43,306 nt of DNA. It comes from Candidatus Omnitrophota bacterium. GTDB taxonomy: Bacteria > Omnitrophota > Gorgyraeia > Zapsychrales > JBDRMG01. Of the stretch, positions 1,063 through 42,537 are shown one piece after another (the stretch's first letter is position 1; each line of letters begins with the position of its first letter). The notes under the pieces were generated by a model that was not told where the DNA came from, searched no databases, and saw only the letters and a program-made list of their open reading frames with translations. The DNA is taken from positions 1 to 43,306 of the forward strand of contig JBDRMG010000033.1 of NCBI GenBank assembly GCA_043812495.1, read 5' to 3'. The translations under genes and the position numbers were made by a program.

Positions 1063-1122
1063 CGGCCCGCCATTGATTCAGTGGCGGGGCGGGGATTAAG
1101 CAAATGCAATATTACCTTTCAA
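1063..1122 (+). repeat. Structured intergenic element, copy 1 (3' half only)
   Basis: CCCGCCATTGATTCAGTGGCGGG hairpin plus GGGGATTAAGCAAATGCAAT...TTTCAA tail shared with full copies. Confidence 0.75.
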
Positions 1123-1165
1123 TATCTTATGGACAACGCCTGCCATGCTTTCCCTGATAACTATC

Positions 1166-2929
1166 CTAACCTATTTTATAAATTCTGTTTTTACCTTCTT
1201 TCTTAGCCTGATACAAGGCTGTATCGGCTTTTAACATTAATTCATATCTGTCTTTCTGCCCTCCAAATTTAACCAGGCCGATGCTGATCGTTGCTTTTTG
1301 TTTTAATCGTAATTTGCCGACATTGGCCAGTATCTTTCCGGCCACGCATTCCGCATCAGCGACATCCGTATCCGGCAGAATAATAACAAACTCGTCACCG
1401 GCATAGCGGGATACGATATCGACATTGCGTGTATGCAAACTGAATAACTTTGATAATTCTTTGAGCAATATATCCCCATCCAGATGGCCGAACGTATCAT
1501 TGTACGTTTTGAAATCGTCGATATCGATCATCAAAAGGCATAACGGCCTCTTATAGCGCCGGGCCCGGTTGATTTCCCTGTCAAGGCTTTGTGCAAAGTG
1601 ACGAAAGTTGTAAATACCCGTCAAGGGATCTGTGATCGTCAGAAATTTTAACTCCTTATAAAGATGCGATGCCTCAATGGCGACAGCCACATGGCGAACG
1701 ATCATATTGAGGATCTTCAGATCCAGGTCATTATATATTTTCGTCTGCTCAGATTGCTTGTTGGTTACGCTGAGAACGCCCATCAGCTTGTCGCCTAATT
1801 TCAAAGGAGCGCTGATAAACGATTTGCTTTGATAATACGGCATGTTTCTTCTGGAAAACCGCTTATCTTTTTCAATGTCTTCGACAAGGACAGATTTTCC
1901 TTCCAGCGCGATTAATCCGGCGATAGGATCCCCCAGCTTTTTTCGTTCAGGAATATCGAAATTGTCACTAAAACCGACATGCCCTTTCAGGCATAGATCA
2001 TTTGTTTTTTCATCGTACAGCATCAAGGAGCATCTGGAGGATTCCAGGATTTTAGAAGTTTTTTTGATGACAAAATCAATCAATGTATCCATGTTCAAAA
2101 CCGCATGGAGCCCTTCTTCCAGCTTCAGCACCTGTTCCAGCTTGTTCTTCTCAACTTCCAGCAGATGTTTTAATTGCTTTTCTTTTTGTTCGGCCAGAAG
2201 ACGGCCGGAAATATCCCTGGCAATGACAGAAACCCCTATGATGGACCCCTGCATATCTTTAATCGGGGAATTGGTCAATGAAACCTGGACTATCGAGCCG
2301 TCCTTTTTCAATCGCGTAGTCTCATAATACCTGATCAAGCTATCCTGCTTGACAATATCCCGTATGGGGATGAATTCCCCCCGTTTATCTTCGGAAAATA
2401 ATATCTGATAGGATTTTCCGGTTATTTCCGCTGCGTGATAACCAAATAGATTCCGGGCGCTTTCATTCCAGCTTGTGATGATGCCGTCTAAGGACACACC
2501 CCATATTGCATCATTCGTACTCTCGACAATAGAAGACATATACAATTTTATTTCTTGAGACTGCTTTGCCTTGATTCCCAGAAAGGCCATTATCCATATC
2601 AAGGCGAATACCAGAATATGGTTGGCATAAAAACGAAGGGCTTGTTGATGCGGCGGCAACATAACGATTCCGGTCAAGACAAGAATAGAGGTAAATATGG
2701 CGAAATTGATCGTAACGTTTTTCTTAGAGGACCATAATGACAGAGCGATAATCGCAGAATAAAGAATACCGACAACAGCCCAGGGGATACACAAATCAAC
2801 AAAAAAGAATATTCCTGATAATATGAAACACGCTATTAAGATAGGCCTGTCTAAGTTCTGGCTTTTTTTCATCATCATAGGTGCTTCGGGATATCGTCCG
2901 CCTCCTTTAAAAGGTGTAACCCCGGTCAT
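1166..2929 (-). CDS. Membrane PAS-GAF-GGDEF diguanylate cyclase
   Basis: N-terminal TM helices, PAS (WNESARNLFGY), GAF, then TDPLTG..N, DIDDFK.YND.FGH, RNVD I-site, YAGDEF, KADTALYQAK; true start may be ATG 2878. Confidence 0.9.
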   Translation of the reverse strand: MTGVTPFKGGGRYPEAPMMMKKSQNLDRPILIACFILSGIFFFVDLCIPWAVVGILYSAIIALSLWSSKKNVTINFAIFTSILVLTGIVMLPPHQQALRFYANHILVFALIWIMAFLGIKAKQSQEIKLYMSSIVESTNDAIWGVSLDGIITSWNESARNLFGYHAAEITGKSYQILFSEDKRGEFIPIRDIVKQDSLIRYYETTRLKKDGSIVQVSLTNSPIKDMQGSIIGVSVIARDISGRLLAEQKEKQLKHLLEVEKNKLEQVLKLEEGLHAVLNMDTLIDFVIKKTSKILESSRCSLMLYDEKTNDLCLKGHVGFSDNFDIPERKKLGDPIAGLIALEGKSVLVEDIEKDKRFSRRNMPYYQSKSFISAPLKLGDKLMGVLSVTNKQSEQTKIYNDLDLKILNMIVRHVAVAIEASHLYKELKFLTITDPLTGIYNFRHFAQSLDREINRARRYKRPLCLLMIDIDDFKTYNDTFGHLDGDILLKELSKLFSLHTRNVDIVSRYAGDEFVIILPDTDVADAECVAGKILANVGKLRLKQKATISIGLVKFGGQKDRYELMLKADTALYQAKKEGKNRIYKIG

Positions 2930-2992
2930 TCAGCTCAGGGTCATAAAACTCAAAATAAATGGTGCATAAATGGTGTCAGACCCGATATCTTC

Positions 2993-3050
2993 TCAATGAG
3001 GCCTGCACTTCTGGATGCCGCGCCCGTCATTGATTCAGTGGCGGGCGGGA
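2993..3050 (+). repeat. Structured intergenic element, copy 2 (internally deleted)
   Basis: TCAATGAGGCCTGCACTT joined via a short linker to CGCCCGTCATTGATTCAGTGGCGGGCG; lies between imperfect IR arms GGTGTCAGAC (2972) and GCCTGTCACC (3066). Confidence 0.7.
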
Positions 3051-3078
3051 AAATGAGCCTGTCACCTTTTTCCCTAAA

Positions 3079-3564
3079 TTATCCTCCGAATATCTCTTTG
3101 AGTCTCTCTGTATCGTTGACATAAAAACAAATCGGGACTTTGTCCCTGACGTCCGGGACGAACGCCCGAAGGCAGCGGTTCCCTTCTGCATCAACGGTCA
3201 CGGCGATATCTTCTTTTTGGCATAATAAATAATTTGTCAGCATCGGAATATTATCAGGTTTATTTCTATGGGTGTAATCAATGATGCGAATTGTCATATT
3301 CGTAACCGACTGTATGATTCTCATATCGGTGACCTTAATCCCTCCGCCGGTTGCGCAATCCCCTCTTCGAATCTTCGGGCTGGTTAACGCTGTTCCCGTA
3401 ATCCCGAAACTTGTTGTTGGGTTCGTGACGACTTTTATGCCGCTTTCTTCATAGAGAATTTCCTCTCCAGGCAGAAGCTTGATGGCCGAAGACAGCATTT
3501 TCGGCAAAAAGATAACCATTAAAAGAACGATCCCGATAAAAATGATTAAAGACATAAATGCCAT
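3079..3564 (-). CDS. Hypothetical membrane-anchored protein
   Basis: 161 aa, N-terminal TM helix, SD AAGGAGG upstream. Confidence 0.7.
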   Translation of the reverse strand: MAFMSLIIFIGIVLLMVIFLPKMLSSAIKLLPGEEILYEESGIKVVTNPTTSFGITGTALTSPKIRRGDCATGGGIKVTDMRIIQSVTNMTIRIIDYTHRNKPDNIPMLTNYLLCQKEDIAVTVDAEGNRCLRAFVPDVRDKVPICFYVNDTERLKEIFGG

Positions 3565-3579
3565 CTTGACCTCCTTCTT

Positions 3580-5118: not shown

Positions 5119-5304
5119 TCAATGAGGCCTGCACTTATGGAATGATAATGCCCGCCATTTTTTTAAATTTAGCGAGGTCTCGTCAATTCGACTTTGTCGA
5201 ATTGACGGAAACATAAGTGCATGGCCGAATTGACCTCGACACGCGCCAATAAAATTTTATCGGCGCGTGGCGGGGATTAAGCAAATACAATTATAATATT
5301 TCAA
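5119..5304 (+). repeat. Structured intergenic element, copy 3 (long form)
   Basis: TCAAT-GA-GGCC-TGCACTTATG...CATAAGTGCA-T-GGCC-GA-ATTGA, second hairpin, tail GGGGATTAAGCAAATACAATTATAATATTTCAA. Confidence 0.9.
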
Positions 5305-6344: not shown

Positions 6345-6524
6345 AGGGACGTTCTTCGCCCCCATTTCAAGGGTGTCCCTTTAAATGAGGCCACAATTTA
6401 CGCGTGCCAATCGTTGTCGGCTAAACATAAGTTGTATGGCCGAATTTACTTCGATTCCCGCTTTTTGGGAATCGAAGCTAGTTCTTTCGGGGACACCCTT
6501 AGCTTACCGGCGAAGAACGTCCCT
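6345..6524. repeat. REP-like nested inverted repeat enclosing element copy 4
   Basis: AGGGACGTTCTTCGCC (6345-6360)/GGCGAAGAACGTCCCT (6509-6524) and AAGGGTGTCCC (6369-6379)/GGGACACCCTT (6490-6500). Confidence 0.8.
6382..6477 (+). repeat. Structured intergenic element, copy 4 (no tail)
   Basis: TAAAT-GA-GGCC-ACAATTTACG...CATAAGTTGT-AT-GGCC-GA-ATTTA then hairpin CTTCGATTCCC/GGGAATCGAAG. Confidence 0.8.
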
Positions 6525-6578
6525 AAAAATCTATTGGTTTTGCATCTTTTGGGCCTGGGCTTCTTTGCGTCGTTCGAA
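6513..6578. repeat. 66-bp direct repeat A (copy of the 3' end of gene 7276-7578)
   Basis: 62/66 identical to 7258-7323. Confidence 0.85.
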
Positions 6579-7257: not shown

Positions 7258-7323
7258 AAGAACGTCCCTAAAGATTTACTGGTTTTGCATCTTTTGGGCC
7301 TGGGCTTCTTTGCGGCGTTCGAA
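7258..7323. repeat. 66-bp direct repeat B
   Basis: 62/66 identical to 6513-6578; spans the stop codon of gene 7276-7578. Confidence 0.85.
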
Positions 7324-8288: not shown

Positions 8289-8409
8289 TCCATGAGCACA
8301 TAAGTTACGTGACCGTAGGGAACGTAACTTATAAGTGCGAATGGACCCCCGCACCAATTATTTCATAATTGGTGCGGGGGACGAAACAAATACAATTATA
8401 ATATTTCAA
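8289..8409 (+). repeat. Structured intergenic element, copy 5
   Basis: TCCAT-GA-GCAC-ATAAGTTACGT...ACGTAACTTAT-AA-GTGC-GA-ATGGA, hairpin CCCCCGCACCAATTAT/ATAATTGGTGCGGGGG, tail CAAATACAATTATAATATTTCAA. Confidence 0.9.
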
Positions 8410-8943: not shown

Positions 8944-8954
8944 GGTGACCTCTT

Positions 8955-9143
8955 TTTTGGTTCTTTCTTATTTAGGGTGGATGAAAGAACCTTGATTACA
9001 TCGATTTAAGAACAGATTACACAGATGTGAATATCTGTGTAATCTAATACAATCTGTGCAATCAGGGCCATTCAATCTTTTTCATCATCTATTTGTCTCT
9101 CTTAAAGTTATGAAATATTTATCAATCCAAACAAGAATGGCCC
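8955..9143. repeat. 189-bp dispersed structured repeat, copy 1
   Basis: Aligns at constant offset with 24466-24654; internal IRs GGTTCTTTC/GAAAGAACC, AGATTACACAGAT/ATCTGTGTAATCT, GGGCCATTC/GAATGGCCC. Confidence 0.85.
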
Positions 9144-11438: not shown

Positions 11439-11629
11439 GAAAAAGTATTTTTGTATTTGGTTAATCCCCCCACCACTTTTTTAAGAAAGTGGGGGGGGTC
11501 AATTCGTCCTTATGACTTATGGAGGCCCCCGCCAAAGGCGGGGCTGACATAAGTCATAAGGACGAATTGACCCCGAGTCCGCCGCTCAATTCATATCGGA
11601 CGAGGGGTAAATGCAATTGTAATATTTTC
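11439..11629. repeat. Structured intergenic element, locus 6: double-ended (two 3' halves back to back)
   Basis: Perfect 27-bp IR 11495-11521/11548-11574 (GGGGTCAATTCGTCCTTATGACTTATG); each side has its own second hairpin and AT-rich tail. Confidence 0.9.
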
Positions 11630-12170: not shown

Positions 12171-12177
12171 GGTTTTA

Positions 12178-12293
12178 AAAACCCTAAATCCGAAATCCTA
12201 AATAAACTCAAAATCCAAAATACAAAACTCAAAACGTTTTGGGTTTTGGATTTGTTATTTTGGATTTATTTAGAGTTTAGGATTTTGGATTTG
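12178..12293. repeat. Inverted micro-repeat array, 7-nt period (AAATCCA/TGGATTT type), between convergent rpmB and recJ
   Basis: AAATCCGAAATCCTAAATAAACTC... / ...GAGTTTAGGATTTTGGATTT around a central CAAAACGTTTTG. Confidence 0.8.
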
Positions 12294-12295
12294 TA

Positions 12296-15924: not shown

Positions 15925-16049
15925 GAAATAGCACCATTTATTTTCTCATCCCCGCCCTTTTGCCTTCGGCAAAAGGGCGGGGTTAATTCGGCCAACAACT
16001 TACGTCATCCCGCCTTTGGCGGGTTATCCGTAAGTTGCGGCCTCATTAA
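15925..16049 (-). repeat. Structured intergenic element, copy 7
   Basis: Minus strand TTAAT-GA-GGCC-GCAACTTACG...CGTAAGTTGT-T-GGCC-GA-ATTAA, hairpin CCCGCCCTTTTGCC/GGCAAAAGGGCGGG, degenerate tail ending TATTTC. Confidence 0.85.
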
Positions 16050-17544: not shown

Positions 17545-17719
17545 TCAATGAGGCCCGCACTTATGGAACGATAGTGTCCGCCAATTGCATTAATGCAATT
17601 GGCGAGATCTCGTCAAAATCAAAGATTTTGACGGAAACATAAGTGCGAGGCCGAATTGACCTCGCCCGCCATTGATTCAGTGGCGGGCGGGGATTAAACA
17701 AATGTCATTATAATATTTC
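17545..17719 (+). repeat. Structured intergenic element, copy 8 (long form)
   Basis: TCAAT-GA-GGCC-CGCACTTATG...CATAAGTGCG-A-GGCC-GA-ATTGA with two inner hairpins, second hairpin, tail ATTAAACAAATGTCATTATAATATTTC. Confidence 0.9.
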
Positions 17720-23836: not shown

Positions 23837-23960
23837 TTGAAATAGTATTTTTGTATTTTCTTGATCCTCGCCCACTAGAAATTTTAACCAATTTGCTGGT
23901 CGAGGTTAATTCGGCCTCGCGCTTTCGTTCATTATCATTTCGCAAGCGCAGGCCTCATTA
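23837..23960 (-). repeat. Structured intergenic element, copy 9
   Basis: Minus strand TAAT-GA-GGCC-TGCGCTT...AAGCGCG-A-GGCC-GA-ATTA, CCTCG/CGAGG hairpin, tail AAATACAAAAATACTATTTCAA. Confidence 0.85.
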
Positions 23961-24095
23961 TTGACTGTTCCATTAATAAGGAAAAGACCAATAATTGTTA
24001 CCCATTATATCAAAATAAGCTGGATTTCTATCGATTTTTAACAGAATTTTCTGAGTTTTTCAGGAATGGGATTTTCGAAAGGTCTAAAAGTGGGC

Positions 24096-25357: not shown

Positions 25358-25477
25358 TCAATGAGCGCATGATTTATACGACCGATAGGGAGTATAAATC
25401 ATTTGCGCGAATTGACCCCGAGTCCGCCAAAGTTTGTGGCGGACTCGGGGTACAGCAAATTAAGAATTTACTATTTC
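25358..25477 (+). repeat. Structured intergenic element, copy 10
   Basis: TCAAT-GA-GCGC-ATGATTTATAC...GTATAAATCAT-TT-GCGC-GA-ATTGA, hairpin CCCCGAGTCCGCCA/TGGCGGACTCGGGG, tail ending CTATTTC. Confidence 0.9.
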
Positions 25478-27901: not shown

Positions 27902-28034
27902 GAAAAAGTATTGTTGTATTTACTTTATCCCCGCCCGCCACTGAAGCAATGGCGGGCGGGGTCAATTCGTCCTTATGACTTATGTCGTCCGCCCCTGAAT
28001 CTATGGCGGACTCCATAAGTCATGGCCTCATTGA
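27902..28034 (-). repeat. Structured intergenic element, copy 11 (supplies the trpG stop)
   Basis: Minus strand TCAAT-GA-GGCC-ATGACTTATG...CATAAGTCAT-AA-GGAC-GA-ATTGA, hairpin CCCCGCCCGCCATTG/CAGTGGCGGGCGGGG, tail. Confidence 0.9.
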
Positions 28035-28590: not shown

Positions 28591-28609
28591 GATTTATACC
28601 TTTCCTAAA

Positions 28610-28750: not shown

Positions 28751-28757
28751 TAGCCAC

Positions 28758-30026: not shown

Positions 30027-30817
30027 CTCACCTGTGCCATTATAGCACGTTCTGTGTTGGCGTAATCTTTAAGAATATCCTTTATAACCCAGCAGGAATT
30101 TTCATTGAATAAAGCCACGATATCTTCTGATTGTCCGTCGCCCATTTCAAGAAACAAAAATCCTTTGTCCTTTAGAAATTCAGGACTCTTTCGAATAATG
30201 CGCCGATAAAAATCCAAGCCGTCTTCTCCTCCGTCCAGGGCAATTTTTGGTTCTCGCTGAACATTCGCGGGAAGTTTGCCGAGTTCGCCCGTTGGGATGT
30301 ACGGAGGGTTGGATACGATGCAATCAAACTTTTTTGATTCACTTGGCGCGTCAGAAAAAGAGAATAAATCACTTTTGATCCATTGAACTCGCTGTGCTAG
30401 GCCGTTGATCTGAGCGTTCTTTTGAGCAACAGCCAAGGCTTCTTGAGAAATATCGAGTGCCGTAATCATCGCTTTAGGTAACTCCTTGGCTAGGCTTAAA
30501 GCAATATTGCCGCTACCGGTCCCGATATCCAGAATAGAGGAAGATTCCCATCCGGCCAATCTTATTTGATGAAGCATAAATTCAACCAAAAGCTCTGTTT
30601 CCGGCCGTGGGATAAGAACAGATGAATTCACTGTTAAGACAATATTCATAAATTCACATTGACCGGTAATATATTGAAGCGGCTCTCCCGCATCTTTGCG
30701 GGATTGCATAAGCGCAAGCTCAAGGCGTTCGCTTGGCGTCAGAGGCTGGGGATCAACGTACAGATCAATCCGTCGGCATTTTTTGATAGTCGTAAGCAAT
30801 AATTCATTTTCGTTCAT
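30023..30817 (-). CDS. prmC: Release factor glutamine methyltransferase
   Basis: GEPLQYI, VLIPRPETE, LDIGTGSG, SNPPY; follows prfA; ATG 30817. Confidence 0.93.
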   Translation of the reverse strand: MNENELLLTTIKKCRRIDLYVDPQPLTPSERLELALMQSRKDAGEPLQYITGQCEFMNIVLTVNSSVLIPRPETELLVEFMLHQIRLAGWESSSILDIGTGSGNIALSLAKELPKAMITALDISQEALAVAQKNAQINGLAQRVQWIKSDLFSFSDAPSESKKFDCIVSNPPYIPTGELGKLPANVQREPKIALDGGEDGLDFYRRIIRKSPEFLKDKGFLFLEMGDGQSEDIVALFNENSCWVIKDILKDYANTERAIMAQVR

Positions 30818-31889
30818 GGGATGCCTTGGCCTCTGCTTCTCTTTGGGCTTGAGAGAGTGCGTCTGTAATTTCATTTAAGTCGCCGTCTAAAACCTTCATG
30901 AGCTGATGGGTCGTAAAATTGATCCGATGATCTGTGATGCGTCGATCGGGAAAATTGTAGGTGCGGATTTTCTCGCTGCGATCTCCGCTGCCGACCATTG
31001 CCTTGCGTTCCTGACTCGTCTTGTCCAGGTTATCTTGTTTCATTTTATCCAGAAGCCGCGCACGCAAGACACGCATGGCCTTTGTCTTATTCTTAAGTTG
31101 CGAGCGTTCGTCCTGGCAGATGACCACCATCCCCGTGGGAAGATGGGTGATGCGAATCGCCGAATCCGTTGTATTCACGCTTTGGCCTCCGGGGCCTGAG
31201 GAGCGAAAAACATCGATTTTCAGCTCCTTGGGATCAATGTTTAATTCCACCTCTTCGGGCTCAAATAAAACAGCGACGGTGGCGGCGGATGTATGAATAC
31301 GGCCTGAGGCTTCGGTCGTTGGAACGCGCTGAACGCGATGCACACCGCTTTCCCATCGCAAGCGCTGGGACGCCCCTTTTCCGCTTAAACTAAAAATAAC
31401 TTCTTTGATCCCATTCCCTTCGTTTGTGCTGATGCTGATGGGCTCCAGTTTCCACCCTTGTTGGGCCGCGAATTTGGAGTACATCCGATACAAGTCAGCG
31501 GCAAAAAGACCGGCTTCGACGCCGCCGGTACCGGCGCGAATTTCTATAATCAAATCCATATCTTTTTCTTGCAGCTTCGGATTCAAATAATCATTGAGCG
31601 CGGCCTCAAGGTCATTAACCTTTTCTTCCAAATCCTTCAATTCCGCTAAAGCAAGCTGTTCAAAGTCTTTATCATGTTTTTCCTCGAGCATTTTTTTGGT
31701 TTCTTTGATTTGACTTTGCCATTTCTTGTATATGCGGAAAGAACGAACCAAGCCGGACAAATCAGAAAACTCCTTGGCGAGTTTTTGATATTGTGATTGA
31801 TCGGCCATGGTTTCCGGCTGAGACAAAAGATGTTCAAGATCTTGATAGCGTTTTTCTTTAATCTGACATTGATCAAACAAAGAGCTCAT
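30804..31889 (-). CDS. prfA: Peptide chain release factor 1
   Basis: VQRVPTTE (PxT), GGQSVN, RTYNFP; next to prmC. Confidence 0.96.
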   Translation of the reverse strand: MSSLFDQCQIKEKRYQDLEHLLSQPETMADQSQYQKLAKEFSDLSGLVRSFRIYKKWQSQIKETKKMLEEKHDKDFEQLALAELKDLEEKVNDLEAALNDYLNPKLQEKDMDLIIEIRAGTGGVEAGLFAADLYRMYSKFAAQQGWKLEPISISTNEGNGIKEVIFSLSGKGASQRLRWESGVHRVQRVPTTEASGRIHTSAATVAVLFEPEEVELNIDPKELKIDVFRSSGPGGQSVNTTDSAIRITHLPTGMVVICQDERSQLKNKTKAMRVLRARLLDKMKQDNLDKTSQERKAMVGSGDRSEKIRTYNFPDRRITDHRINFTTHQLMKVLDGDLNEITDALSQAQREAEAKASHERK

Positions 31890-31921
31890 TTGACATAATC
31901 CTATCTTTCAAAAGAATAATC

Positions 31922-32128
31922 TTACGATTTCTTCTTGCCGTATCGTTTTTCAAACCGCTCGATGCGTCCGGCGGTATCCACATACTTTTTATCGCCGGTA
32001 AAAAACGGATGGCAACTGGAACAAATCTCCACGCGAATATTTTTTGTGCTGGATCGTGTATGAATCACATTCCCGCACGCACAAGTCACGGTCGTTTCTT
32101 CATATTTGGGGTGGATTCCCTTTTTCAT
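31922..32128 (-). CDS. rpmE: 50S ribosomal protein L31 (Zn-binding form)
   Basis: [29 protein letters not shown]. Confidence 0.96.
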
Positions 32129-32152
32129 TTTCTTCTCCTTCTTTCATGGATA

Positions 32153-33472
32153 TTATTTGTTAAGATTTTCCAAAAATTCTTTATTGGTCTTAAACCGTGC
32201 CAGTTTCTCGAGCAACAATTCCATGGACTCGGCGGAATTCAAGTCATTTAAGACTTTCCTCAAAAGCCAAATACGCTGCAGTTCATCTTCTTGGATCAAT
32301 AACTCCTCATGACGCGTATTGGATCGGCGAATATCGATGGCCGGATAGATACGGCGTTGGAACAAATTGCGGTCCAACTGCAATTCCATATTGCCCGTTC
32401 CCTTGAATTCCTCAAAAATAACTTCATCCATGCGGCTGCCCGTATCGACTAAGGCAGTAGCGATAATCGTGAGACTTCCGCCTTCTTCCACAGCACGCGC
32501 GGCACCGAAGAATCTTTTTGGCTTGTGCAAGGCGTTGGAATCAACACCGCCGGATAGAATTTTGCCGCTGTGAGGTTCAACCGTATTATAGGCGCGCGCC
32601 AAGCGTGTGATGCTGTCTAAGAGAATAACCACATCACGCTTGTGCTCCACCAAACGCTTGGCCTTCTCAAGGATAATTTCCGCGATCTGCACATGCCGTT
32701 CGGCCGGCTCGTCAAACGTGGAGGAAATTACTTCACCTTTGACGGAGCGCTGCATGTCGGTCACTTCTTCGGGCCGCTCATCAATCAGAAGAATCAGCAA
32801 AATGACATCCGGCTGATTTTGCGTGATCGCATTAGCGATTTTCTGAAGAAGAACTGTTTTCCCCGAATACGGCTGCGCCACAATCAAGGCCCTTTGCCCT
32901 TTTCCTAAAGGTGTCAAAAGATCCATCACCCGCATGGACATTTCTTTGGGCGCAGTTTCTAAAAGAATTCTTTCTTTCGGATAAAGCGGCGTCAGGTTAT
33001 CAAAAAGAATTTTATCTTTGCATTTTTCCGGATTCTCAAAATTCACCGCTTCCACCTTCAGGAGCGCAAAGTATTTTTCGCCTTCTTTGGGCGGACGGAT
33101 GTGACCGCTCACGATATCGCCGGTCTTCAGATTGAATTTGCGAATCTGTGACGGAGATATGTAAATATCATCCGGACACGGCAGATAGTTGTAGTTGGCG
33201 CTCCTTAAGAATCCGAAACCTTCGGGCAGGATCTCGAGCGTTCCGCCGCCAAACATCAATCCTTCCTGCTCCGCTTGACCTTGCAGAATCCTAAAAATAA
33301 GATCCTGTTTCTTCATTCCGCTAATGCCGTTGATATTCATGTCTCGGGCGAATTTCGCAAGCTCGGAAATCTTCATGAGCTTTAGCTTATCGATATCCAC
33401 TTGTTGCGACTTTGTTGGTTTTTTCTCTTTTTCTGTCATGTTCTTTTCTTCCTTTTCGACAGTCTCAGCCAT
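32153..33472 (-). CDS. rho: Transcription termination factor Rho
   Basis: [47 protein letters not shown]. Confidence 0.97.
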
Positions 33473-34044
33473 ATATCCTCCACTTGTTTTTCTGTTTGTG
33501 CTAAACGATTTCTGTTATCAATCATTATATCCGCGCATCGGATTTTTTCGCGCATGGACAACTGAGCCCGTATTCTCTTTTTGATATCGGCCGGACAAAT
33601 GCCTTTACGCTCGACAATCCGCTTGATTTGTAAGGCCCGATTGGCCTTGACAACGATAAGAGTATCAACATATTTATGTAAACCGGCTTCGATCAAAAGA
33701 GGGGCATCGATCACAACAGCCGAAATGGCTTTGTTTTTTTGATATTTCCTGATGGCTTTCTTGATATCCCGCACAACAGGAGGATGAATGATGTTGCATA
33801 ATTTTTTTAAACCTTTGGGGGAATTGAATACAATGCGCGCCAACTTTTTCCGGTCAATCCGGCCATCCGTGAGAATCCTTTGGCCAAACAAACGCACAAC
33901 CGCTTGAAAACACTCGCCGTTTCTTCGCATCAAGGGCCGCGTCATTTCATCGGCATTCAGAAGGCGAGCGCCTTTTTTCTCAAACATTCTGGCCACTGTT
34001 GTTTTTCCGGATCCAAAACTTCCAGTAATCCCTATGACAAGCAT
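33436..34044 (-). CDS. coaE: Dephospho-CoA kinase
   Basis: [30 protein letters not shown]. Confidence 0.93.
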
Positions 34045-35423
34045 TGCCGATATAACCTCACGTAGTCCTGAGCTGATTTTTCCCAGGAAAAATCCACTTG
34101 AAATGCTCGGGCGATCAAATCGCGGAAATCATCTTTTCTCTTAAAGACCTCAACGGCCCTTTCCATTTCCCGGATTAATGTCTTTGCATCGTACGCCGGC
34201 ATGACAAACCCGTTTCCGTTGCCGGCTGCTGATTCCAAAGGCTTCACGGTGTCAACCAGTCCTCCGCGGTCAGAAACGATCGGGATTGTCCCGTAATGGA
34301 GACTGATCATTTGATTCAAACCGCACGGTTCATAGGCCGAGGGCATCAACAGAAAGTCACAGCCCGCATACATCTGATGCGCTTTTGTTTCGTTGAAATC
34401 AAGGAAAGTAGCCATTTTTTGAGGATGCTGTCGGGCTAAATCGCTTAAAAAATGCTCAAATCTTTCTTCGCCGACACCCAGAAAGATCAACTGCAGATCC
34501 AGCTTCAGAATCTCGGCAAGAGCCTCTTTTAAGAGCACAAGGCCTTTTTGTTCAACCAATCGCCCGATAAATCCAAAAAGAGGAATATCCGCATCCGCGG
34601 GAAGCTGCGCCGTCTCCTGCAACTTCTTTTTGTTGACCTGCTTGCCTGTGCAATTTTCTTTGTTATATGTTTTTTCAATAAAGCGGTCGCTCTCGGAATT
34701 CCACGTGGTTTCATCCAGGCCATTTAATATGCCGATGACGGGATTTTTCCTCTTGCGCAAAGTCCCTTCCAGACCGCAACCAAATTCTTTTTCCTGAATC
34801 TCTTTGGCGTACTGAGGGCTGACCGTTGAAACACAGTCACTGTGCATAATCCCCGCATGCAGAAAGTTGATTCGGTTGTTGAACATCAATCCGTCCTCAA
34901 TGAAATCCAGCTTTGCCGCTTCGTTTTTTGGAAAAATTCCCTGATAGGAAATATTATGTATGGTTAAGACCGATTTCATGTTCTGATAGAATGGATCGGT
35001 TTTGTATTTCGTCTTCAAAAGAACAGGGATCAGGGCTGTCGGCCAATCATGACAATGGATAATATCCGCTTGAAAAGAGATTGTTTTCAATAATTCCAAC
35101 GCAGCTTGACTAAAGAAGTGAAAACGTTCTAGATTGTCTTTGTAATCGCCCTTTTTGTCTCCGTAGATGCCTTCCCGGTCAAAATATTCCGCATGATTGA
35201 TCAAATAAACCTTGATATTTTTGCCGATACGCGTCTGGGTGACATGCTCATTCACTTGCCGGATCGAAGCTTGATTGACTCGGATGCACAGATAATGCGG
35301 CAAGATTATGACGACCTCTATTCCTTGTTTCTCTAAAGCCAGGGGCAAGGCGCCGCAGACATCTCCCAGGCCGCCTGTTTTGGCTAAAGGTGCAACTTCT
35401 GTTGAAAAAAAGGTAACTTTCAT
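34032..35423 (-). CDS. glgA: Glycogen synthase (GT5)
   Basis: KTGGLGDV, HCHDW, TIHN, GILNG, GRL..QKG, EPCGL.Q. Confidence 0.93.
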   Translation of the reverse strand: MKVTFFSTEVAPLAKTGGLGDVCGALPLALEKQGIEVVIILPHYLCIRVNQASIRQVNEHVTQTRIGKNIKVYLINHAEYFDREGIYGDKKGDYKDNLERFHFFSQAALELLKTISFQADIIHCHDWPTALIPVLLKTKYKTDPFYQNMKSVLTIHNISYQGIFPKNEAAKLDFIEDGLMFNNRINFLHAGIMHSDCVSTVSPQYAKEIQEKEFGCGLEGTLRKRKNPVIGILNGLDETTWNSESDRFIEKTYNKENCTGKQVNKKKLQETAQLPADADIPLFGFIGRLVEQKGLVLLKEALAEILKLDLQLIFLGVGEERFEHFLSDLARQHPQKMATFLDFNETKAHQMYAGCDFLLMPSAYEPCGLNQMISLHYGTIPIVSDRGGLVDTVKPLESAAGNGNGFVMPAYDAKTLIREMERAVEVFKRKDDFRDLIARAFQVDFSWEKSAQDYVRLYRQCLS

Positions 35424-37990
35424 GCTTCTTTTAGATCAAGCCAATTGTGTCCGGCCTTGATACTGACCTTGATAGGAACATGCAAGACTAAGGGGTGTTC
35501 CATCTTTTCCCGTATCAGGGCAATCATCTCTTCTTTTTCTTCCCTGAGAACATCAAAGACCAGTTCGTCATGAACCGTGATAATCATTTTAGACTGCAGC
35601 GTCCTTGAATGGATTTCTTCGTGAATATGAATCATGGCGCATTTGATCAGATCTGCGGCCGATCCCTGAACGGGCGTATTAATAGCCTGCCGTTGGGCAA
35701 ACTGGGCGATGGCCATATTGTCGCTGTTGATCTCGGGTAAATACCGACGACGATTCAAAATGGTCACGACAAAACCTTTATCTTGCGCTTCTTTAATCTT
35801 TTCATCCATAAATTTCCTGACCGAAGGGTAACGTAAAAAATATTTATCGATAAACTCTTGAGCCTGAGTCTGTGAGATTTTAAGATCCTTGGCTAAACCG
35901 AAGGGGCTCATCCCATAAATAATGCCAAAATTAACTCTCTTGGCCGTATCTCTCATTTCTTTGGTGACCTTGCCCTGATGAACATCAAAAATTAAGGAAG
36001 CGGTAAATCGATGAATATCTTGATCCTCCTCAAAGGCTTTGATGAGATTTTTGTCACCGGAAAGGTGCGCCAGAATCCTCAATTCAATCTGCGAATAATC
36101 CGCCGAAATAATTTCATGCGAATCTTTGGAGGCAATAAAGGCCTTGCGAATTTTCCGGCCAAGTTCTGTGCGAACAGGAATATTCTGCAAATTGGGGTTG
36201 TTGGAACTCAACCGCCCCGTCTCGGTTCCCGTCTGATTAAAAGAGGCATGAATGCGTTTCGTGTAACGATCAACGAGTTTCGGCAAGGCATCGATATAGG
36301 TTGATTTGAGCTTCGTTAGCTGCCTGTATTCCAAGATCAACGCCGGCAGTGCATGTTTCTCGGCGAGCTTGCTCAAAACCCCCTCATCGGTCGAAAAACC
36401 GGTTTTCGTTTTCTTGATCACCGGTAATTTCAGCCGCTCAAACAAAACATGGCTCAACTGCTTGGGAGAATTCAAGTTGAACTCCATACCCGCCATGTGA
36501 GTCAACTTCTTGATCAGAGTCCCAATCTTTTCCTGGCATTCAAGCGAGAGTGTTTTGAGTAATCCCTCATCAATTTTGACACCTTCGGATTCCATGGCGG
36601 ACAAAACAAACGCCAGGGGCATTTCAATCTCGTCAAAAAGCTTAATGAGCGCCTTTTCCTCCAATTCTTTGGACAAAACAGAATACAACTCAAACAATAG
36701 ATTTGTTTCAAGGGCTAAATTTCTGTCCTCGGAAACCGTCTTTTTCGCATGACGCCAGGCTAAAGATGCCAAATCAAAAGTTCCTTGGGAAGGCGCCAAA
36801 AGATAACCGGCTAACATCACGTCAAAAGTTTTCCCCTTAAGTGTGATCTTTTTATCGCGTAAAGTTTTCAGTGAATTCTTAATATCATGATTGATTTTGA
36901 CAATATCCTCATTTTCAAAAACATCTTTGAGCTGGGAGATTTTATCTTGCGCTATGGCATAGACTTGGCCTTCGTCAACGGATATCATCATTTGGTCAAA
37001 CAAGACCTCTTGCGATTCGTCGGATGAGCTGAAAAGAAAAGCAAACCGGCCGCGCGTTTTAACCTTCTCTATGAAAGCATCCATTTCTTTGTTCGTTGTC
37101 AATTCTCTCGATTGAACGTGCATCCTGTCCTCTTGATGACCGGAAAATTCTTGAGCGATTTTGCGAAATTCCAGTTCTTTGAAAAGCTCAAAAAGGCCCT
37201 GGCGATCCGGCTCGATGACCTTCAAATTCTCCATTTGAAAATGGATGGGAACCTGGTCGTCTAAGATGGCTAATTCCCTGCTCAATAGGGCCTGCTGTTT
37301 TTGCTGCGTTAAAAGGCTCCTCACCTTCACAGACTTGATTTCATCAATATTTTTGAAGATCTCGTCCATAGAACCAAAACGATTGATGAGGGCGCGCGCT
37401 GTTACATCGCCAATACCGAGAACGCCCGGGATATTGTCTGTTTTATCTCCCGCCAGGCCGATAAAGTCCACAATCTTTTCCGGATCAATGCCAAGCGATT
37501 TCTTGACATCCTCTTTGTCCAAAATTTGATCTTGGCGAGAATGATAGACATAAACCTGATCCCCGAGCAATTGATACATATCTTTATCGCCGCTGACGAT
37601 CACAACTTTCAATTTCTCCTCTTTTGCTTTCTTAGCTATCGTTGCGATCACGTCGTCGGCTTCGAACCCTTCCATCTCGAAAATGGATAAGCGATGGGCT
37701 AGAACCATTTTCTTAATGAGAGGGATTTGGCTAACCAGCGGATCGGGCATAGGCGGACGATGGATTTTATATTCGGCGAACTTTTCTGTTCGCCGGGTTT
37801 TTTTGCCCACATCAAAACAAATGGCCATGTATGCGGGGCGATGGTCTTTGAGGATTTTACGCAGTGTATTGTAAAATCCAAAAACGGCATTCGTGGCCTG
37901 GCCGTAGGACGTCGCCAATCCCTTAATGGCAAAAAAGGACCGATAGCATAACGCATTGGCATCAATTAAAAACAGCGTAGGTTCGGACAT
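35420..37990 (-). CDS. polA: DNA polymerase I
   Basis: 5'-3' exo domain (EADD, SGDKD, GDKTDNIPG), TGRLSS.NPNLQNIP, ADYSQIELR, VHDEL. Confidence 0.97.
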   Translation of the reverse strand: MSEPTLFLIDANALCYRSFFAIKGLATSYGQATNAVFGFYNTLRKILKDHRPAYMAICFDVGKKTRRTEKFAEYKIHRPPMPDPLVSQIPLIKKMVLAHRLSIFEMEGFEADDVIATIAKKAKEEKLKVVIVSGDKDMYQLLGDQVYVYHSRQDQILDKEDVKKSLGIDPEKIVDFIGLAGDKTDNIPGVLGIGDVTARALINRFGSMDEIFKNIDEIKSVKVRSLLTQQKQQALLSRELAILDDQVPIHFQMENLKVIEPDRQGLFELFKELEFRKIAQEFSGHQEDRMHVQSRELTTNKEMDAFIEKVKTRGRFAFLFSSSDESQEVLFDQMMISVDEGQVYAIAQDKISQLKDVFENEDIVKINHDIKNSLKTLRDKKITLKGKTFDVMLAGYLLAPSQGTFDLASLAWRHAKKTVSEDRNLALETNLLFELYSVLSKELEEKALIKLFDEIEMPLAFVLSAMESEGVKIDEGLLKTLSLECQEKIGTLIKKLTHMAGMEFNLNSPKQLSHVLFERLKLPVIKKTKTGFSTDEGVLSKLAEKHALPALILEYRQLTKLKSTYIDALPKLVDRYTKRIHASFNQTGTETGRLSSNNPNLQNIPVRTELGRKIRKAFIASKDSHEIISADYSQIELRILAHLSGDKNLIKAFEEDQDIHRFTASLIFDVHQGKVTKEMRDTAKRVNFGIIYGMSPFGLAKDLKISQTQAQEFIDKYFLRYPSVRKFMDEKIKEAQDKGFVVTILNRRRYLPEINSDNMAIAQFAQRQAINTPVQGSAADLIKCAMIHIHEEIHSRTLQSKMIITVHDELVFDVLREEKEEMIALIREKMEHPLVLHVPIKVSIKAGHNWLDLKEA

Positions 37991-38029
37991 GAAGTGATCT
38001 TACAATTTTTAAGGATTTAACATGCTTGG

Positions 38030-38932
38030 CTATTTAGATACTTGAATAGGCTCGTTTGGAATAATGGCGAGTATCTTACGAAATTCAATTTTTGCGGATA
38101 CGGTGTCTCCCAGTCTCAACATCTTAAGGGCAGAATCCGCATGCACCTTGGCTTGGTCATAGGTATAATTCAGTATCGCCTGATTACGGGCTGCAATGAT
38201 GTTAGGATTCTGCGGAGTAAAGGACAGAGCGCGGTTATATTCCATAATCGCTTCCTTGTACTTCTTGTCTTTGTCTAGCTTTTGCCCCCTTTCATAAAAA
38301 TCTTTGGCTTTAATGACCTGCTGATGGAAATCCTCTCTGGCTTCTTCAACCAGGGCTTGATTCAATTCATCAATTTGCTGCCGCTCAAGCCAAGCGCGGA
38401 TATCGGGAAACCTTTCACTCAGTTCGCTCAAACGCTCCTTGGCATGTTTGGTCCACGGGTCGTTGGCATCACCCCAAGCAACGCGTTTTTTCAAATACTC
38501 CGCTGCTTTTCGGTAATCTTCCTGGCGTTCATACAAATAGGCGAGATTCGCGTAGGTCGGTAAGTAGTGACTATCCGAATGAAGAGCTTCCAGGTAGCTT
38601 GTTTCCGCTTGCTCCAGTAAACCTAATTTTTCATAAACCACGCCGATATCATTGTAAAGGATCGCCGGGTTGGCGCTCAGGGCAGCGGCCTTAGTATAGA
38701 AAGAAAGGGCCTCGTCTAACTTGCCTTCCTGCTGCGCGCTATAGCCCTTCAGGCGATAGTCTTCGGCAGACTCTTCTTTTAAATCGGCAAAAACGTTAGA
38801 ATGAAAGGTGAATAAAAATAAGGAGACAATCAGAAGCGTTCGCAAGATCGAATTGAGTGTTTGAAATCTTTCAGTGTTTTTATAATAGCTGACAAAATTT
38901 TGTTTGGCAAGTAAATTTTTGGATTCACGCAT
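38030..38932 (-). CDS. Tetratricopeptide repeat protein
   Basis: Several TPR units (YNDIGVVYEKLG, YANLAYLYE); hydrophobic N-terminal segment; start uncertain. Confidence 0.8.
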   Translation of the reverse strand: MRESKNLLAKQNFVSYYKNTERFQTLNSILRTLLIVSLFLFTFHSNVFADLKEESAEDYRLKGYSAQQEGKLDEALSFYTKAAALSANPAILYNDIGVVYEKLGLLEQAETSYLEALHSDSHYLPTYANLAYLYERQEDYRKAAEYLKKRVAWGDANDPWTKHAKERLSELSERFPDIRAWLERQQIDELNQALVEEAREDFHQQVIKAKDFYERGQKLDKDKKYKEAIMEYNRALSFTPQNPNIIAARNQAILNYTYDQAKVHADSALKMLRLGDTVSAKIEFRKILAIIPNEPIQVSK

Positions 38933-38979
38933 GCATAACTCTCTTTGTTACCATCTAGATCCGATGTGATAACTCCTGA

Positions 38980-40293
38980 TCAATTGATCTGAATATTTTC
39001 CCCATCAGGAAGCTGGTCAAGTGAAGAACTCATGCCTTGAGGATCAGCCGGATGTTCTTCGGTCGCGGGACGATCGGGAATCATTTCAAGAATCTCCGCG
39101 TAAGAGCAGGGATTCAAAAGGCGTCCTCCGAGGCTTGAAACATCGACCCTGTCTTCGATCAGACGCAAATACTTATCCTTTTCTTCCTGAGTATTTATTA
39201 AAACAACGCCGATCGCACGATCATTTTTGATTAAAATGCTCTTATAGGATTGAGAGTCCCCATCGGATTGAGAAAGCACCTTGCAGCCTTCATGAGATTT
39301 GGTTTGGCCTAAAATATCAATTTCAAGATCACCTATCTTAAGAGCATATGATCGCAAGGAAGGCTGATAGGCTGCTGGCTGACCGGAGATATTGGCGCTC
39401 AAAACTTTTGCCTGAGCTTCTTGATCAGCAAGAGGGCTCTCTTCGCCTTGTTTGGAGTCCGCAAATTCGCATGCCTTCCCCATAGCGTACACATGATCAA
39501 GGTTGGTGCGTAGAAATTCGTTAACCATCAAGCCCTGCTTGATTGCTAGGCCTGAATCAGCCACAAGGCGCCAATCGGGCTTAATCCGGCCCAGAATCAC
39601 AACCTGAGCCGCAAGGACTTTGCCTGATTCGAGCCTGATGGCTTTGACATCTCCGTTGCCGAGGATTTCGTTGATGTCATTGTTGCGTGCCACGCGTATA
39701 TCATTTTTTTCAAGGGCTTGCGTAATAAGTTCGGCAGGTTCTTTTTCAATCAACTGAGACAGAATATATTCTTTTCCGGTTAGCACGATGACATCTTTTT
39801 TCCGCTCTTTAAGCCGGCAGGCGACGGTTAGCCCCTTTGGCGTATCCACATCGATCGCGACGGTCTCTGTGACAGGTAAAACAGCGGCCATATTCTTCAC
39901 GTCGGTCCACCGCTCAAGACTGAAGACACCCGCCTTCTGCGTACCTTTCATTTCCGGAAAACGAATCGCGGGCGCGTCGGCAATCACCAGAATATCGAAG
40001 GAAATCTGTTCTTTGTCATCTGTCGCGAGGATGTTCTTCTTGAGGTTAATACGGCTTATTGTTTTATTCGCTATGAGCTGAATTCTCTTTTGCTGATAAT
40101 AATTCTCATTCTCGAAATAAACGTCTTTTTCTTCGATTTTCTTGCTTAGAAAATCCACAAATAAGTGAGAATGGAAAGGAAGCGCTGCGTCCGTACAGAA
40201 AATGATGATTTCACTTTCTGAATCCGCAAGACGAATCTCTTGGGCGCATTTTGCACCGGCGTAAGAATTCCCGAGTATAAGAATTTTCTTCAT
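38980..40293 (-). CDS. FAD/NAD(P)-dependent oxidoreductase-like protein (NirB N-terminal/rubredoxin reductase fold), degenerate motifs
   Basis: KILILGNSYAG, G..VNEFLRTN..HVYA.G, C-terminal dimerisation domain. Confidence 0.75.
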   Translation of the reverse strand: MKKILILGNSYAGAKCAQEIRLADSESEIIIFCTDAALPFHSHLFVDFLSKKIEEKDVYFENENYYQQKRIQLIANKTISRINLKKNILATDDKEQISFDILVIADAPAIRFPEMKGTQKAGVFSLERWTDVKNMAAVLPVTETVAIDVDTPKGLTVACRLKERKKDVIVLTGKEYILSQLIEKEPAELITQALEKNDIRVARNNDINEILGNGDVKAIRLESGKVLAAQVVILGRIKPDWRLVADSGLAIKQGLMVNEFLRTNLDHVYAMGKACEFADSKQGEESPLADQEAQAKVLSANISGQPAAYQPSLRSYALKIGDLEIDILGQTKSHEGCKVLSQSDGDSQSYKSILIKNDRAIGVVLINTQEEKDKYLRLIEDRVDVSSLGGRLLNPCSYAEILEMIPDRPATEEHPADPQGMSSSLDQLPDGENIQIN

Positions 40294-40298
40294 ATATG

Positions 40299-41165
40299 TT
40301 ATTCTTTTCTTGTTTGGAGTTTAAAAACCTCGATCCCGTTTTTCATCAATAGCATAACCGTCATCGGCCCCACACCGCCCGGCACAGGCGCAATATAAGA
40401 TGCTCTTTTTTTCGCCTCTTCAAATTCAACATCACCGACTATTTTTGAGCCTGCTTTGTTGATGCCGACATCGATCACGCAAGCCCCTTCCTTGATCCAA
40501 TCACCTTTGATCAGATCGGCTTGGCCAACAGCCACAATCAAGATATCAGCTTGTGCCACATGCTCTTTGAGCCGGCCGGCTTCGCTTGTCGCAATATGGC
40601 AAATTGTTACGGTGGCCAACTCTCTCAATAAAAGCAAAGCCAGGGGCTTTCCAACAATATCGCTGTGCCCGACAATCACGACGTCTTTTCCTCGGACCGT
40701 TAAGCCCGTGGATTTGATTAAGGCCATCACCGCTGCGGGCGTGCAAGGGATAATGGTCGTTTCTCCTAAAAGCATCCGTCCGATATTGACCGCATTGATT
40801 CCCTCGATGTCTTTATGGATGTCGATTGCGCTTAAGGCTAGCCGATAATCAATAGCCTCCGGAACCGGCCGGTGAATCAGAATGCCGTTGATTTTGGGAT
40901 CATGGTTTAACTTGTTGACATAATCCATAAAATCTTCTTGGGAAATATTATACGGGAGGTGAATCCATTGATAATCCACACCGATGAATTCGGCCGCTTT
41001 CTTCTGCGCCTGCGCGTACGCGCAAGACCCTCCATCGTCTCCGATCATCAAGTTGACCAGCGTAGGGACGCGGCCGGTTGCTGCCTTTAAATCATCAACG
41101 TCCTTTTTTAACTTTTCTTTGAGCTGGTTCGCCAGCCAATTTCCGTCAATCAGTTTGGCGCTCAT
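40299..41165 (-). CDS. folD: Methylenetetrahydrofolate dehydrogenase (FolD family)
   Basis: LIDG, PCTP, G.SDIVGKP, VIDVGIN, GDV.F, PVPGGVGPMT. Confidence 0.95.
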   Translation of the reverse strand: MSAKLIDGNWLANQLKEKLKKDVDDLKAATGRVPTLVNLMIGDDGGSCAYAQAQKKAAEFIGVDYQWIHLPYNISQEDFMDYVNKLNHDPKINGILIHRPVPEAIDYRLALSAIDIHKDIEGINAVNIGRMLLGETTIIPCTPAAVMALIKSTGLTVRGKDVVIVGHSDIVGKPLALLLLRELATVTICHIATSEAGRLKEHVAQADILIVAVGQADLIKGDWIKEGACVIDVGINKAGSKIVGDVEFEEAKKRASYIAPVPGGVGPMTVMLLMKNGIEVFKLQTRKE

Positions 41166-41647
41166 TGATTCACCTCGATATGAATCAGGCTCGCGCGAAA
41201 CGCGGCCAATAAGAATTCCACGGCCACCTGAATATCGCTCACAAGATAAGGGCTTCCGTGCTTAACCAAAAACGGCGTCATCCCGACGGCCTCATAACAT
41301 AATCGGCAAACTTCCCGCGGAACGTCCTGTGCTTTCTTTAAGGCCTTCTTCTTTAATGTGGTTTTGCTGTTAGAAATCTTCCTTACATTAAGATAAACCT
41401 TGGCATCCAAATCAACGAGCTGAAGAAGGCGTCGGCGCATCGCTTCGCTTCTTTTCAAAATGTTCTTGATTTTTTGATCAACGGCCTTGGAATTCTTCCG
41501 TCCCTTGGCATAGCGAGCCGCCATGCCTATTAATCCGAGGCCAAGCGCAGCCACCAAAGAAGCCGCGGACCCTCCTCCTGGCACGGGTTCCTTACTGGAC
41601 AAGTGGCCCAGATATTCTTGAATGGTTTGGCTCTTATAGGAACGCAT
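41162..41647 (-). CDS. Cyclodeaminase/cyclohydrolase family protein (FchA-like methenyl-THF cyclohydrolase)
   Basis: L.S.EPVPGGGSAA, D.D...Y, VP, SD, N motifs (FTCD_C); 4-nt overlap with folD. Confidence 0.85.
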   Translation of the reverse strand: MRSYKSQTIQEYLGHLSSKEPVPGGGSAASLVAALGLGLIGMAARYAKGRKNSKAVDQKIKNILKRSEAMRRRLLQLVDLDAKVYLNVRKISNSKTTLKKKALKKAQDVPREVCRLCYEAVGMTPFLVKHGSPYLVSDIQVAVEFLLAAFRASLIHIEVNQ

Positions 41648-41761
41648 TTTTATTTTCTAAGCGTATGGACCTTGCTGGGATAATCACAAATTGAAAGGAT
41701 GAATGTATGGTTTCTTAATCGTTGGAATAGAAAAACTTACCTCGCTAACACAAGTGATAAG

Positions 41762-41879
41762 GAAATATTATCATTGCATTTGCTTAATCCCCGACTTCTT
41801 GCTTTCGCAAGAAAGCAGCGGGGTCAATTCGGCCATGCACTTATGTTGATTATCATTCCATAAGTGCAGGCCTCATTGA
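41762..41879 (-). repeat. Structured intergenic element, copy 12 (short form)
   Basis: Minus strand TCAAT-GA-GGCC-TGCACTTATG-GAATGATAATCAA-CATAAGTGCA-T-GGCC-GA-ATTGA-CCCCG...CGGGG-ATTAAGCAAATGCAATGATAATATTTC. Confidence 0.92.
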
Positions 41880-41889
41880 AAAGACAATT

Positions 41890-41918
41890 TATAATACCTT
41901 ATGCAAAAACCATTTTCA
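41890..41918 (-). promoter_or_regulatory. Putative sigma70 promoter immediately upstream of element copy 12 and the fchA-folD operon
   Basis: Minus strand TTGAAA-17nt-TATTAT. Confidence 0.55.
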
Positions 41919-41960
41919 ATATCTTCTTAACTTTTTTCAACTTTGCTTTTTTGCCTGATG

Positions 41961-42344
41961 TTAATACAGATAGGGGCCCATGGCATCAAAGGCATTTTCC
42001 AGAATTTTGACGCAAGGCTTTTGATCCTCATCCGTTGTCACGGCCGCCATGTCAAAGCGTGCCTTTCTCTTGAGCCAATTTTTACGCTTCAAGTAGACCA
42101 AGGCCAGTTGCGTGAGTTTATGTTTTTTTCGCGGCGTGATCGCCTCCAAAGGAGTGCCCCTACTGGCGGTTGTGCGCGTCTTGACTTCGATAAAGCACAC
42201 TGTATCCTCATGGAGGGCAATAATATCGATTTCGCCTAAAGGATGACGAAAATTTTTTTCAAGAATCCGATATCCTTTTTTCTTGAGAACATCAGCAGCC
42301 CAGTCTTCGCCTGCCTGTCCTAATATTTTCTTGCCTAAAGTCAT
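41961..42344 (-). CDS. yraN: YraN family (UPF0102) endonuclease-like protein
   Basis: G..GE..A, GY.ILEKN.R, GEIDII, FIEVKTR, RFD. Confidence 0.92.
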   Translation of the reverse strand: MTLGKKILGQAGEDWAADVLKKKGYRILEKNFRHPLGEIDIIALHEDTVCFIEVKTRTTASRGTPLEAITPRKKHKLTQLALVYLKRKNWLKRKARFDMAAVTTDEDQKPCVKILENAFDAMGPYLY

Positions 42345-42353
42345 TTAGGAATT

Positions 42354-42537
42354 TTGAAATATTATAATTGTATTTGTTTAATTCCCAGAGTCCGCGACTA
42401 TTTTTGGTCGCGGACTCTGGGTCAATTCGGCCTTATGACTTATGTTCCGTCAATTCGATAAAATCGAATTGACGAGACCTCGCAAAAAATTCAAAAAATT
42501 GGCGGGCGCTTCACTCCATAAGTCATGGCCTCATGGA
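42354..42537 (-). repeat. Structured intergenic element, copy 13 (long form, supplies the rnhB stop)
   Basis: Minus strand TCCAT-GA-GGCC-ATGACTTATG...CATAAGTCAT-AA-GGCC-GA-ATTGA, hairpin CCCAGAGTCCGCGAC/GTCGCGGACTCTGGG, tail CAAATACAATTATAATATTTCAA. Confidence 0.92.

Follow-up and report, generated by a model that had tools for sequence, protein, structure and literature searches.

A mobile, structure-conserved hairpin family between Omnitrophota genes and its cassette with a small GIY-YIG nuclease gene

The Ssn/SRM system, as set out for SsnA of Neisseria (Chenal et al., 2025, PMC11893778), consists of a single-domain GIY-YIG gene between inverted, oriented hairpin repeats, accompanied by hundreds of gene-less copies besides the gene-flanking ones. 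Its authors call the NTS-ssnA-NTS layout IS-like, and SsnA binds and cuts one strand only of its own repeat, as single-stranded DNA (ssDNA), a few bases upstream (PMC11893778). REP, BIME and REPIN sequences are dispersed intergenic imperfect palindromes that form inverted pairs and mosaics; which mobilisers act on REP-like repeats, and how these arise and spread, is still an open question, in which a role of Ssn is suspected and unproven. Here we describe a hairpin family that resembles both systems. It was encountered in a contig of 43,306 nucleotides from a Candidatus Omnitrophota bacterium (JBDRMG010000033.1, assembly GCA_043812495.1), the whole of which is called the window below.

A sequence-only reading of the window had flagged 13 structured intergenic loci, and the described sequence is present at all of them (Table 1). 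The full architecture claimed for them, namely hairpin 1 (an interrupted stem of 55-130 nt), hairpin 2 and an AT-rich tail, is complete at nine loci; the remaining four are one tail-less copy, one double-tailed palindromic dimer and two fragments. The proposed covariation of the stems is borne out by an alignment of 41 copies, in which 98.2% of 761 cells are paired, with 184 two-sided (compensatory) changes and 9 G-U cells. This pairing level is approached by 0 of 500 shuffles and by no slid register; the outer nine pairs had been preselected for pairing in most rows, the inner ten had not. A further 36 copies from other genomes were picked by sequence pattern alone (the plus-strand loci among 80 retrieved of 108 found), and their helix is 96.8% paired against 25% at two flanking control pairs, the unselected second pair carrying 11 two-sided changes and 6 breaks. 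In folding tests, four copies had z values from -5.8 to -11.1, whichever strand was folded. Rfam yielded no family at gathering score, the only sub-threshold match being NsiR4 (27.6 of 40 bits) at hairpin 2 of one copy. Two likenesses were considered and rejected: the CUG of the hammerhead core (ATGA-stem-GAA) has given way to other letters and the flanks form an ordinary stem, and in comparison with a K-turn the GA pairs are not adjacent to the bulge.

The tandem mismatch had been described as an unchanging GA/GA, which does not hold across the family. Among 24 copies in genome G069, 16 carry GA/GA, 7 carry AA/GC and 1 carries GA/AA; the mismatch there exists in two linked states, AA occurring with GC in 7/7 cases and GA with GA in 16/17, and this linkage implies a reader. 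In the window, the central stem of the dimer at 11439-11629 pairs TC with GA, and the dimer is therefore without GA/GA, whereas a second mismatch of GA/GA type, which the folds of the 25358 and 27902 copies show at the cap base, had been overlooked. One middle-stem pair of the 27902 copy is broken. Genome-wide, a descriptor of the form 5bp-XX-4bp...4bp-YY-5bp gave 128 matches with GA/GA, 94 with the Watson-Crick control GA/TC, and 13, 10, 38, 28, 8 and 16 with AG/AG, GA/AG, AA/AA, GG/AA, AC/AC and CA/CA, respectively.

Copies linked to a candidate enzyme gene were found at ten sites. In each cassette, of about 450-500 bp, hairpin 1 and a hairpin-2 arm are followed by a GIY-YIG gene of 84 amino acids, the other hairpin-2 arm and an inward-facing second hairpin 1. 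One such cassette lies on contig C5 of the bacterium's own genome (G000; nuclease gene at 24312-24563, minus strand), and the others lie in nine further genomes (loci L069, L070, L071, L072, L075, L148, L194, L195 and L197); the ten cassettes in ten genomes occupy ten different sites. In two of the nine the right hairpin was identified by eye, its long cap being unscored. Symmetric gene-less copies with the cassette's arms are common, and hairpin 2 of the 8289 window copy is the CCCCCRCACCAATT arm pair, the same that surrounds the GIY-YIG gene at other sites. The window copies are half-elements: a tail stands in place of one hairpin 1.

The association with hairpin 1 is restricted to one GIY-YIG clade. 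Hairpin 1 adjoins 5 of 78 related GIY-YIG loci, all five within the seven best matches, and in further sets it adjoins 1 of 17 and 4 of 6 loci (one of the four being L071 again). It brackets 1 of 16 GIY-YIG matches in the own genome, where other loci are flanked by different hairpins or duplicated tRNA pieces, and two more distant GIY-YIG loci keep a hairpin-2-like arm pair alone. Residues Y5, Y16, G18, R26, H30 and E62 (catalytic) are invariant in 21 alignment rows. The nuclease matches the Pfam GIY-YIG family with 62 bits, no NCBIfam family above cut-off, and unnamed GIY-YIG clusters in a protein Atlas search; its predicted structure (pLDDT 91.7) has its best fold matches in UPF0213, HIGLE and Slx1, which points to an Slx1/UPF0213-like fold. 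A C-terminal W..L extension is typical of cd10448, and the alignment shows the 84-residue protein to be without it. A paralogue in the own genome with SRM-like flanks is 40% identical over 65 amino acids and has a longer C-terminus.

Several other GIY-YIG loci were seen along the way. Fifteen small GIY-YIG genes occur within the 1.9 Mb of the own genome (L023-L038). Many of them neighbour a tRNA or tmRNA gene, together with a duplicated tRNA piece and hairpins of different families; at L027 the flanks are SRM-like and the C-terminus is longer. At L077, from Patescibacteria, a GIY-YIG gene and a gene-less sister (882-982, 1487-1768) are bracketed by a hairpin-2-type arm alone, both inserts lying exactly at stop codons of a pilin-like gene cluster.

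The flagged sequences are mobile, structure-conserved, gene-less element copies between Omnitrophota genes. The own genome (1.94 Mb) holds at least 131 covariance-model matches, with 150 of 732 candidates scored, and hairpin 1 occurs in 47 of 60 relatives with 1 to 71 matches each. The 80 listed loci of the genome collection belong to Omnitrophota (57), Planctomycetes (13), unnamed bacteria (7) and others (3), and viral contigs gave 0 matches to one strict pattern. The tailed form, with 65 matches in the own genome versus 0 in the 60 relatives, is lineage-specific and expanded only in the own lineage; the tail was rejected as a family-wide end, its exact pattern giving 13 scattered non-Omnitrophota matches without hairpin 1 and 0/60 in relatives. 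The rnhB-yraN gap is empty in 3/3 relatives, the yraN-fchA gap in the 2/2 that keep the gene order, and the trpG-trpD gap in 5/5, four of which have an ATGA overlap. In one genome, four successive junctions of a ribosomal-protein operon are filled by copies whose arms match the native junction, and all four are empty in 5/5 other genomes (gene names assigned by eye from translations). At the ortholog gaps and ribosomal-protein junctions compared, the sites are not conserved between genomes. Cap modules occur in both orientations. The empty gaps and the lack of an Rfam family agree with the earlier suggestion of a non-autonomous mobile element, most likely read as ssDNA, and its observation that copies lie in both orientations and fill gaps inside core operons is confirmed by the window coordinates, as at trpG-trpD and rnhB-yraN. 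Contigs of three DNA sequencing runs compared with window 23320-43300 gave no joint that skips a copy, at a coverage too sparse for this purpose.

We consider it somewhat probable that the repeat forms an ssDNA hairpin, which its own GIY-YIG nuclease cuts and host repair inserts. The repeats would then be gene-less derivatives of the cassette, formed either by loss of the gene (the symmetric form) or by replacement of one hairpin 1 with the AT-rich tail (the window form). The purine-rich tandem mismatches and the one-sided bulge would allow the 84-residue nuclease to read one DNA strand of hairpin 1; the enzyme would nick at the foot of this hairpin and would act in trans on the gene-less copies; host repair would then paste a copy into a gene junction, leaving short duplications of variable length. 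Reliance on host repair is proposed because a GIY-YIG nuclease is without strand-transfer activity. The GNA and GNNA loops seen by eye at hairpin caps, of which at least 8 of 20 listed caps in genome G059 close on a GNA triloop, are stable as DNA. Together with the rare G-U pairs, the inverted cap modules and the copies in both orientations, they favour a DNA hairpin.

The copies sit at gene junctions, with a precision that can be followed by eye in the window. Of the five plus-strand copies whose left end is present and whose context is intact, four lie at, or no more than 3 nt from, the Shine-Dalgarno (SD) site of the next gene (5119, 8289, 17545 and 25358; not 6382), the left end of the 5119 copy abutting the SD of a minus-strand gene. 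The distance from the tail end to a stop codon is 2-5 nt at 5119 (2 nt from the upstream stop at 5305), 8289 and 25358 (2 nt from the trpF stop), and the distance to a start codon is 3-18 nt at 11439 (the dimer, 3 nt from dinB), 15925, 23837, 27902 and 42354. Of the 24 G069 copies, 15 directly adjoin an ATG or AGGAG of the opposite strand, and 9 come after the end of a gene. At the 27902 copy the native trpG end and its ATGA overlap with trpD are now found downstream. Duplications are irregular: 13 nt from the 3' end of a tRNA, 9 nt at one cassette site (L075), 9 nt with one mismatch at the trpG copy, and 3-6 nt at stop/start overlaps beside symmetric gene-less copies. Duplications this irregular would be more in keeping with a hydrolytic nuclease than with a transposase. 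At L159:1813-2119 of genome G006, two tandem elements stand at a tRNA 3' end with a 13-nt repeat of that end between them and adjoin a tRNA-linked GIY-YIG gene. The trpG (27973-28590) and rnhB (42491-43153) frames terminate within the inserted copies, so that their C-termini are altered.

At conserved genes, the 5' strand of the outer stem is host sequence. In the hypE copy it consists of the end of a conserved Cys codon plus the stop of the host gene, a sequence that the internal arm matches; a different outer pair is found in the sister copy at hypD. This permits a tentative and rather doubtful extension of the proposal, in which the outer stem is partly a duplex between the host stop/start junction (TAATG, TAG or the edge of the SD) and an internal guide arm, so that the nuclease would choose its target by base pairing. 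The guide-target principle of IS200/IS605 elements, where flanks pair with internal sequence, is a possible likeness. Arm and flank do not match in one cassette, at L218 in G069 and in 6 of 36 copies elsewhere, and these are counter-cases. If true, a guide-target duplex would make an 84-residue nuclease the basis of a reprogrammable system for ssDNA insertion, and would amount to a new programmable insertion chemistry.

A number of observations weigh against cutting by the bracketed nuclease followed by repair. Energy models fold both strands equally well, and the gene is broken in 3 of 10 cassettes. Only one of 60 relatives has the bracketed gene (G001, broken), in a search at E<=1e-15 that covers close homologues in draft genomes, and the same search found no bracketed gene in the high-copy genomes G059, G010, G006, G015 and G034. 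The gene occupies a freely variable loop that elsewhere holds unrelated filler DNA, and it could therefore be cargo. Most tailed copies are without a duplication, and a general target-site duplication for them was not seen by eye. A base-exact empty site in a close relative was not among the genomes available.

The sequence-only reading had pointed to a HUH or tyrosine-recombinase-type enzyme, which is not the class of the hairpin-bracketed gene, a small GIY-YIG nuclease; tyrosine recombinases lay outside the search. A REP/REPIN-type element moved in trans by a Y1 HUH enzyme (RAYT or IS200/IS605 TnpA), with the GIY-YIG gene as a passenger or second user of the hairpin, would account for strand transfer, of which Y1 enzymes are capable and GIY-YIG enzymes are not, and for the inverted-pair layout that resembles REPINs. 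The own genome has seven Y1 genes, an IS200-type tnpA sits inside one copy, and the AA/GC form of G069 equals the E. coli REP bulge that is needed for TnpA-REP activity (PMC8266576). Yet hairpin 1 brackets 0/7 Y1 loci in the own genome and 0/12 from five high-copy genomes (0/19 in all), the own RAYT-like genes carry other inverted repeats, the draft genome G006 has 51 hairpin-1 matches and no Y1 match, and there is no GTAG at the hairpin foot. We hold this explanation to be unlikely. As none of these Y1 genes is bracketed by hairpin 1, RAYT/IS200 was also rejected as the parent of the family. The tnpA within a copy (G000 C64:87-625, L001) contains one internal TAG and has end hairpins of its own. 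Its insertion point in this tailed copy directly follows TCAA, read on the complementary strand, and the repeat could be its target.

A dedicated enzyme may not be needed at present if copies spread where junctions are single-stranded, through slippage of host replication, template switching and repair, only inserts between genes being spared by selection and GIY-YIG genes colonising them later. The shuffled, inverted and nested modules, the irregular duplications and the absence of a cassette from most carrier genomes are in line with this, but fold-back copying would erase mismatches and bulges, which persist across the phylum, and the linkage of mismatch states in G069 argues for a reader; we regard this route as quite improbable. 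Most improbable of all is a host-selected structured RNA module of polycistronic mRNA (for processing, stability or translational coupling): tandem G-A pairs are common in RNA, copies have their ends at stop or start codons or at SD sites, and 20 of 36 flanks in other genomes end in the SD complement, but tailed copies lie in both orientations relative to co-directional genes, insertion sites are not conserved and no Rfam family matches, and the multicopy structured RNA that had been offered as an option is further disfavoured by the inverted caps, the few G-U cells and the GNA triloops.

Table 1. Copies and fragments of the hairpin family in the window, with strand and basis of assignment (HP2, hairpin 2)
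Feature	Position	Strand	Basis
Fragment, hairpin 2 remnant and AT-rich tail	1063..1120	+	no hairpin-1 covariance-model match
Fragment, hairpin 1 left arm and cap module	2993..3049	+	no full covariance-model match
Complete tailed copy, long branched cap	5119..5302	+	covariance model, 55 bits
Hairpin 1 and second hairpin, tail-less, next to another hairpin family	6382..6477	+	covariance model, 53.6 bits
Complete tailed copy	8289..8407	+	covariance model
Symmetric double-tailed dimer, tail-HP2-palindrome-HP2-tail	11439..11629	no strand	covariance model
Complete tailed copy, upstream of argS	15925..16049	-	covariance model
Complete tailed copy, long branched cap	17545..17719	+	covariance model
Complete but eroded tailed copy	23839..23961	-	covariance model, 44.9 bits
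Complete tailed copy, fills gap after trpF, left end at next gene's SD	25358..25477	+	covariance model
Complete tailed copy, in last codons of trpG	27902..28034	-	sequence comparison at trpG-trpD
Complete tailed copy, yraN-fchA gap	41762..41879	-	covariance model, ortholog comparison
Complete tailed copy, 3' end of rnhB, before yraN	42356..42537	-	covariance model, ortholog comparison

The covariance model matched 11 loci in the window, six of which were in its training set. The window genes are housekeeping genes, almost all on the minus strand, and the best relatives of its rnhB are from Ca. Omnitrophota. The window has further repeats. Another hairpin family at 6345-6578 and 7258-7323 (GGGACGTT/GGGACACC arms) is similar to the inverted repeats that flank L003 and L004, both RAYT-like genes. 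A direct repeat of 190 nt with 88% identity is found at 8954-9143 and 24465-24654, and intergenic palindromes of short tandem units (7-8-nt periods) at 12176-12295, 17032-17134, 19827-19904 and 28607-28670. A c-di-GMP-I-GGC riboswitch match below threshold (53.3 of 59 bits, E 6.7e-10) covers 24278-24428; its span of 151 nt against an 80-nt model suggests an inserted hairpin.

Altogether, the family offers a tractable case beyond the Ssn clade, in which an 84-residue nuclease is accompanied by hundreds of covarying hairpins that would map a recognition code, by two mismatch states (GA/GA and AA/GC) with convergence on the E. coli REP bulge, and by ten independent cassette sites. Should the nuclease prove to cut its hairpin, site-specific ssDNA nucleases would form a far larger pool than cd10448.

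How the element relates to named families can be stated in more modest terms than at first. Integron attC boxes were not seen in the alignments, copies lying in both orientations inside core operons and no integrase search having been made, and a literature search that did not extend to subscription papers and supplements gave no description of the hairpin family. With non-autonomous IS200/IS605 derivatives it shares imperfect subterminal hairpins, but its ends are inverted rather than co-oriented, its duplications vary and no tnpA lies between the ends; nor are ends shared with the IS200-type tnpA, which has end hairpins of its own (TnpB was not searched). Some caps read as a CGTCA-hairpin on the opposite strand (window 15925), like the CGTC-tagged palindromes (Di Nocera et al., 2013), which are units of 20-40 nt and correspond here only to an optional inner module; the main text of that paper does not mention GIY (PMC3733652). 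REP sequences share the strand-specific stem mismatch, the high copy number and the intergenic position, one lineage having the AA/GC of E. coli REP, whereas the GTAG foot of REP/RAYT is absent, the flanks are variable and pyrimidine-rich, and the bracketed gene is GIY-YIG instead of Y1 HUH. In the ten cassettes a small single-domain GIY-YIG gene has hairpin repeats on both sides, as in Ssn/SRM. The claim that this is no named family holds for Rfam and, at the gap length run, for the SRM pattern, while the layout of a GIY-YIG gene with inverted hairpin flanks is already published (PMC11893778) and the element is less novel than first claimed. The SRM pattern, run with its third gap fixed at 0 (one gap length), gave as many matches in the control as in the genome (4 each), with no copy among them, so that at this gap length the repeat does not match the SRM consensus. 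It differs further from the roughly 30-nt Ssn/SRM hairpin in its longer interrupted stem and second hairpin, in a nuclease lacking the longer C-terminus of the SRM-like-flanked paralogue and with UPF0213 and Slx1/HIGLE as predicted nearest solved relatives, and in copies placed exactly at gene junctions. The element works like Ssn/SRM and REP/RAYT, and is filed under neither.

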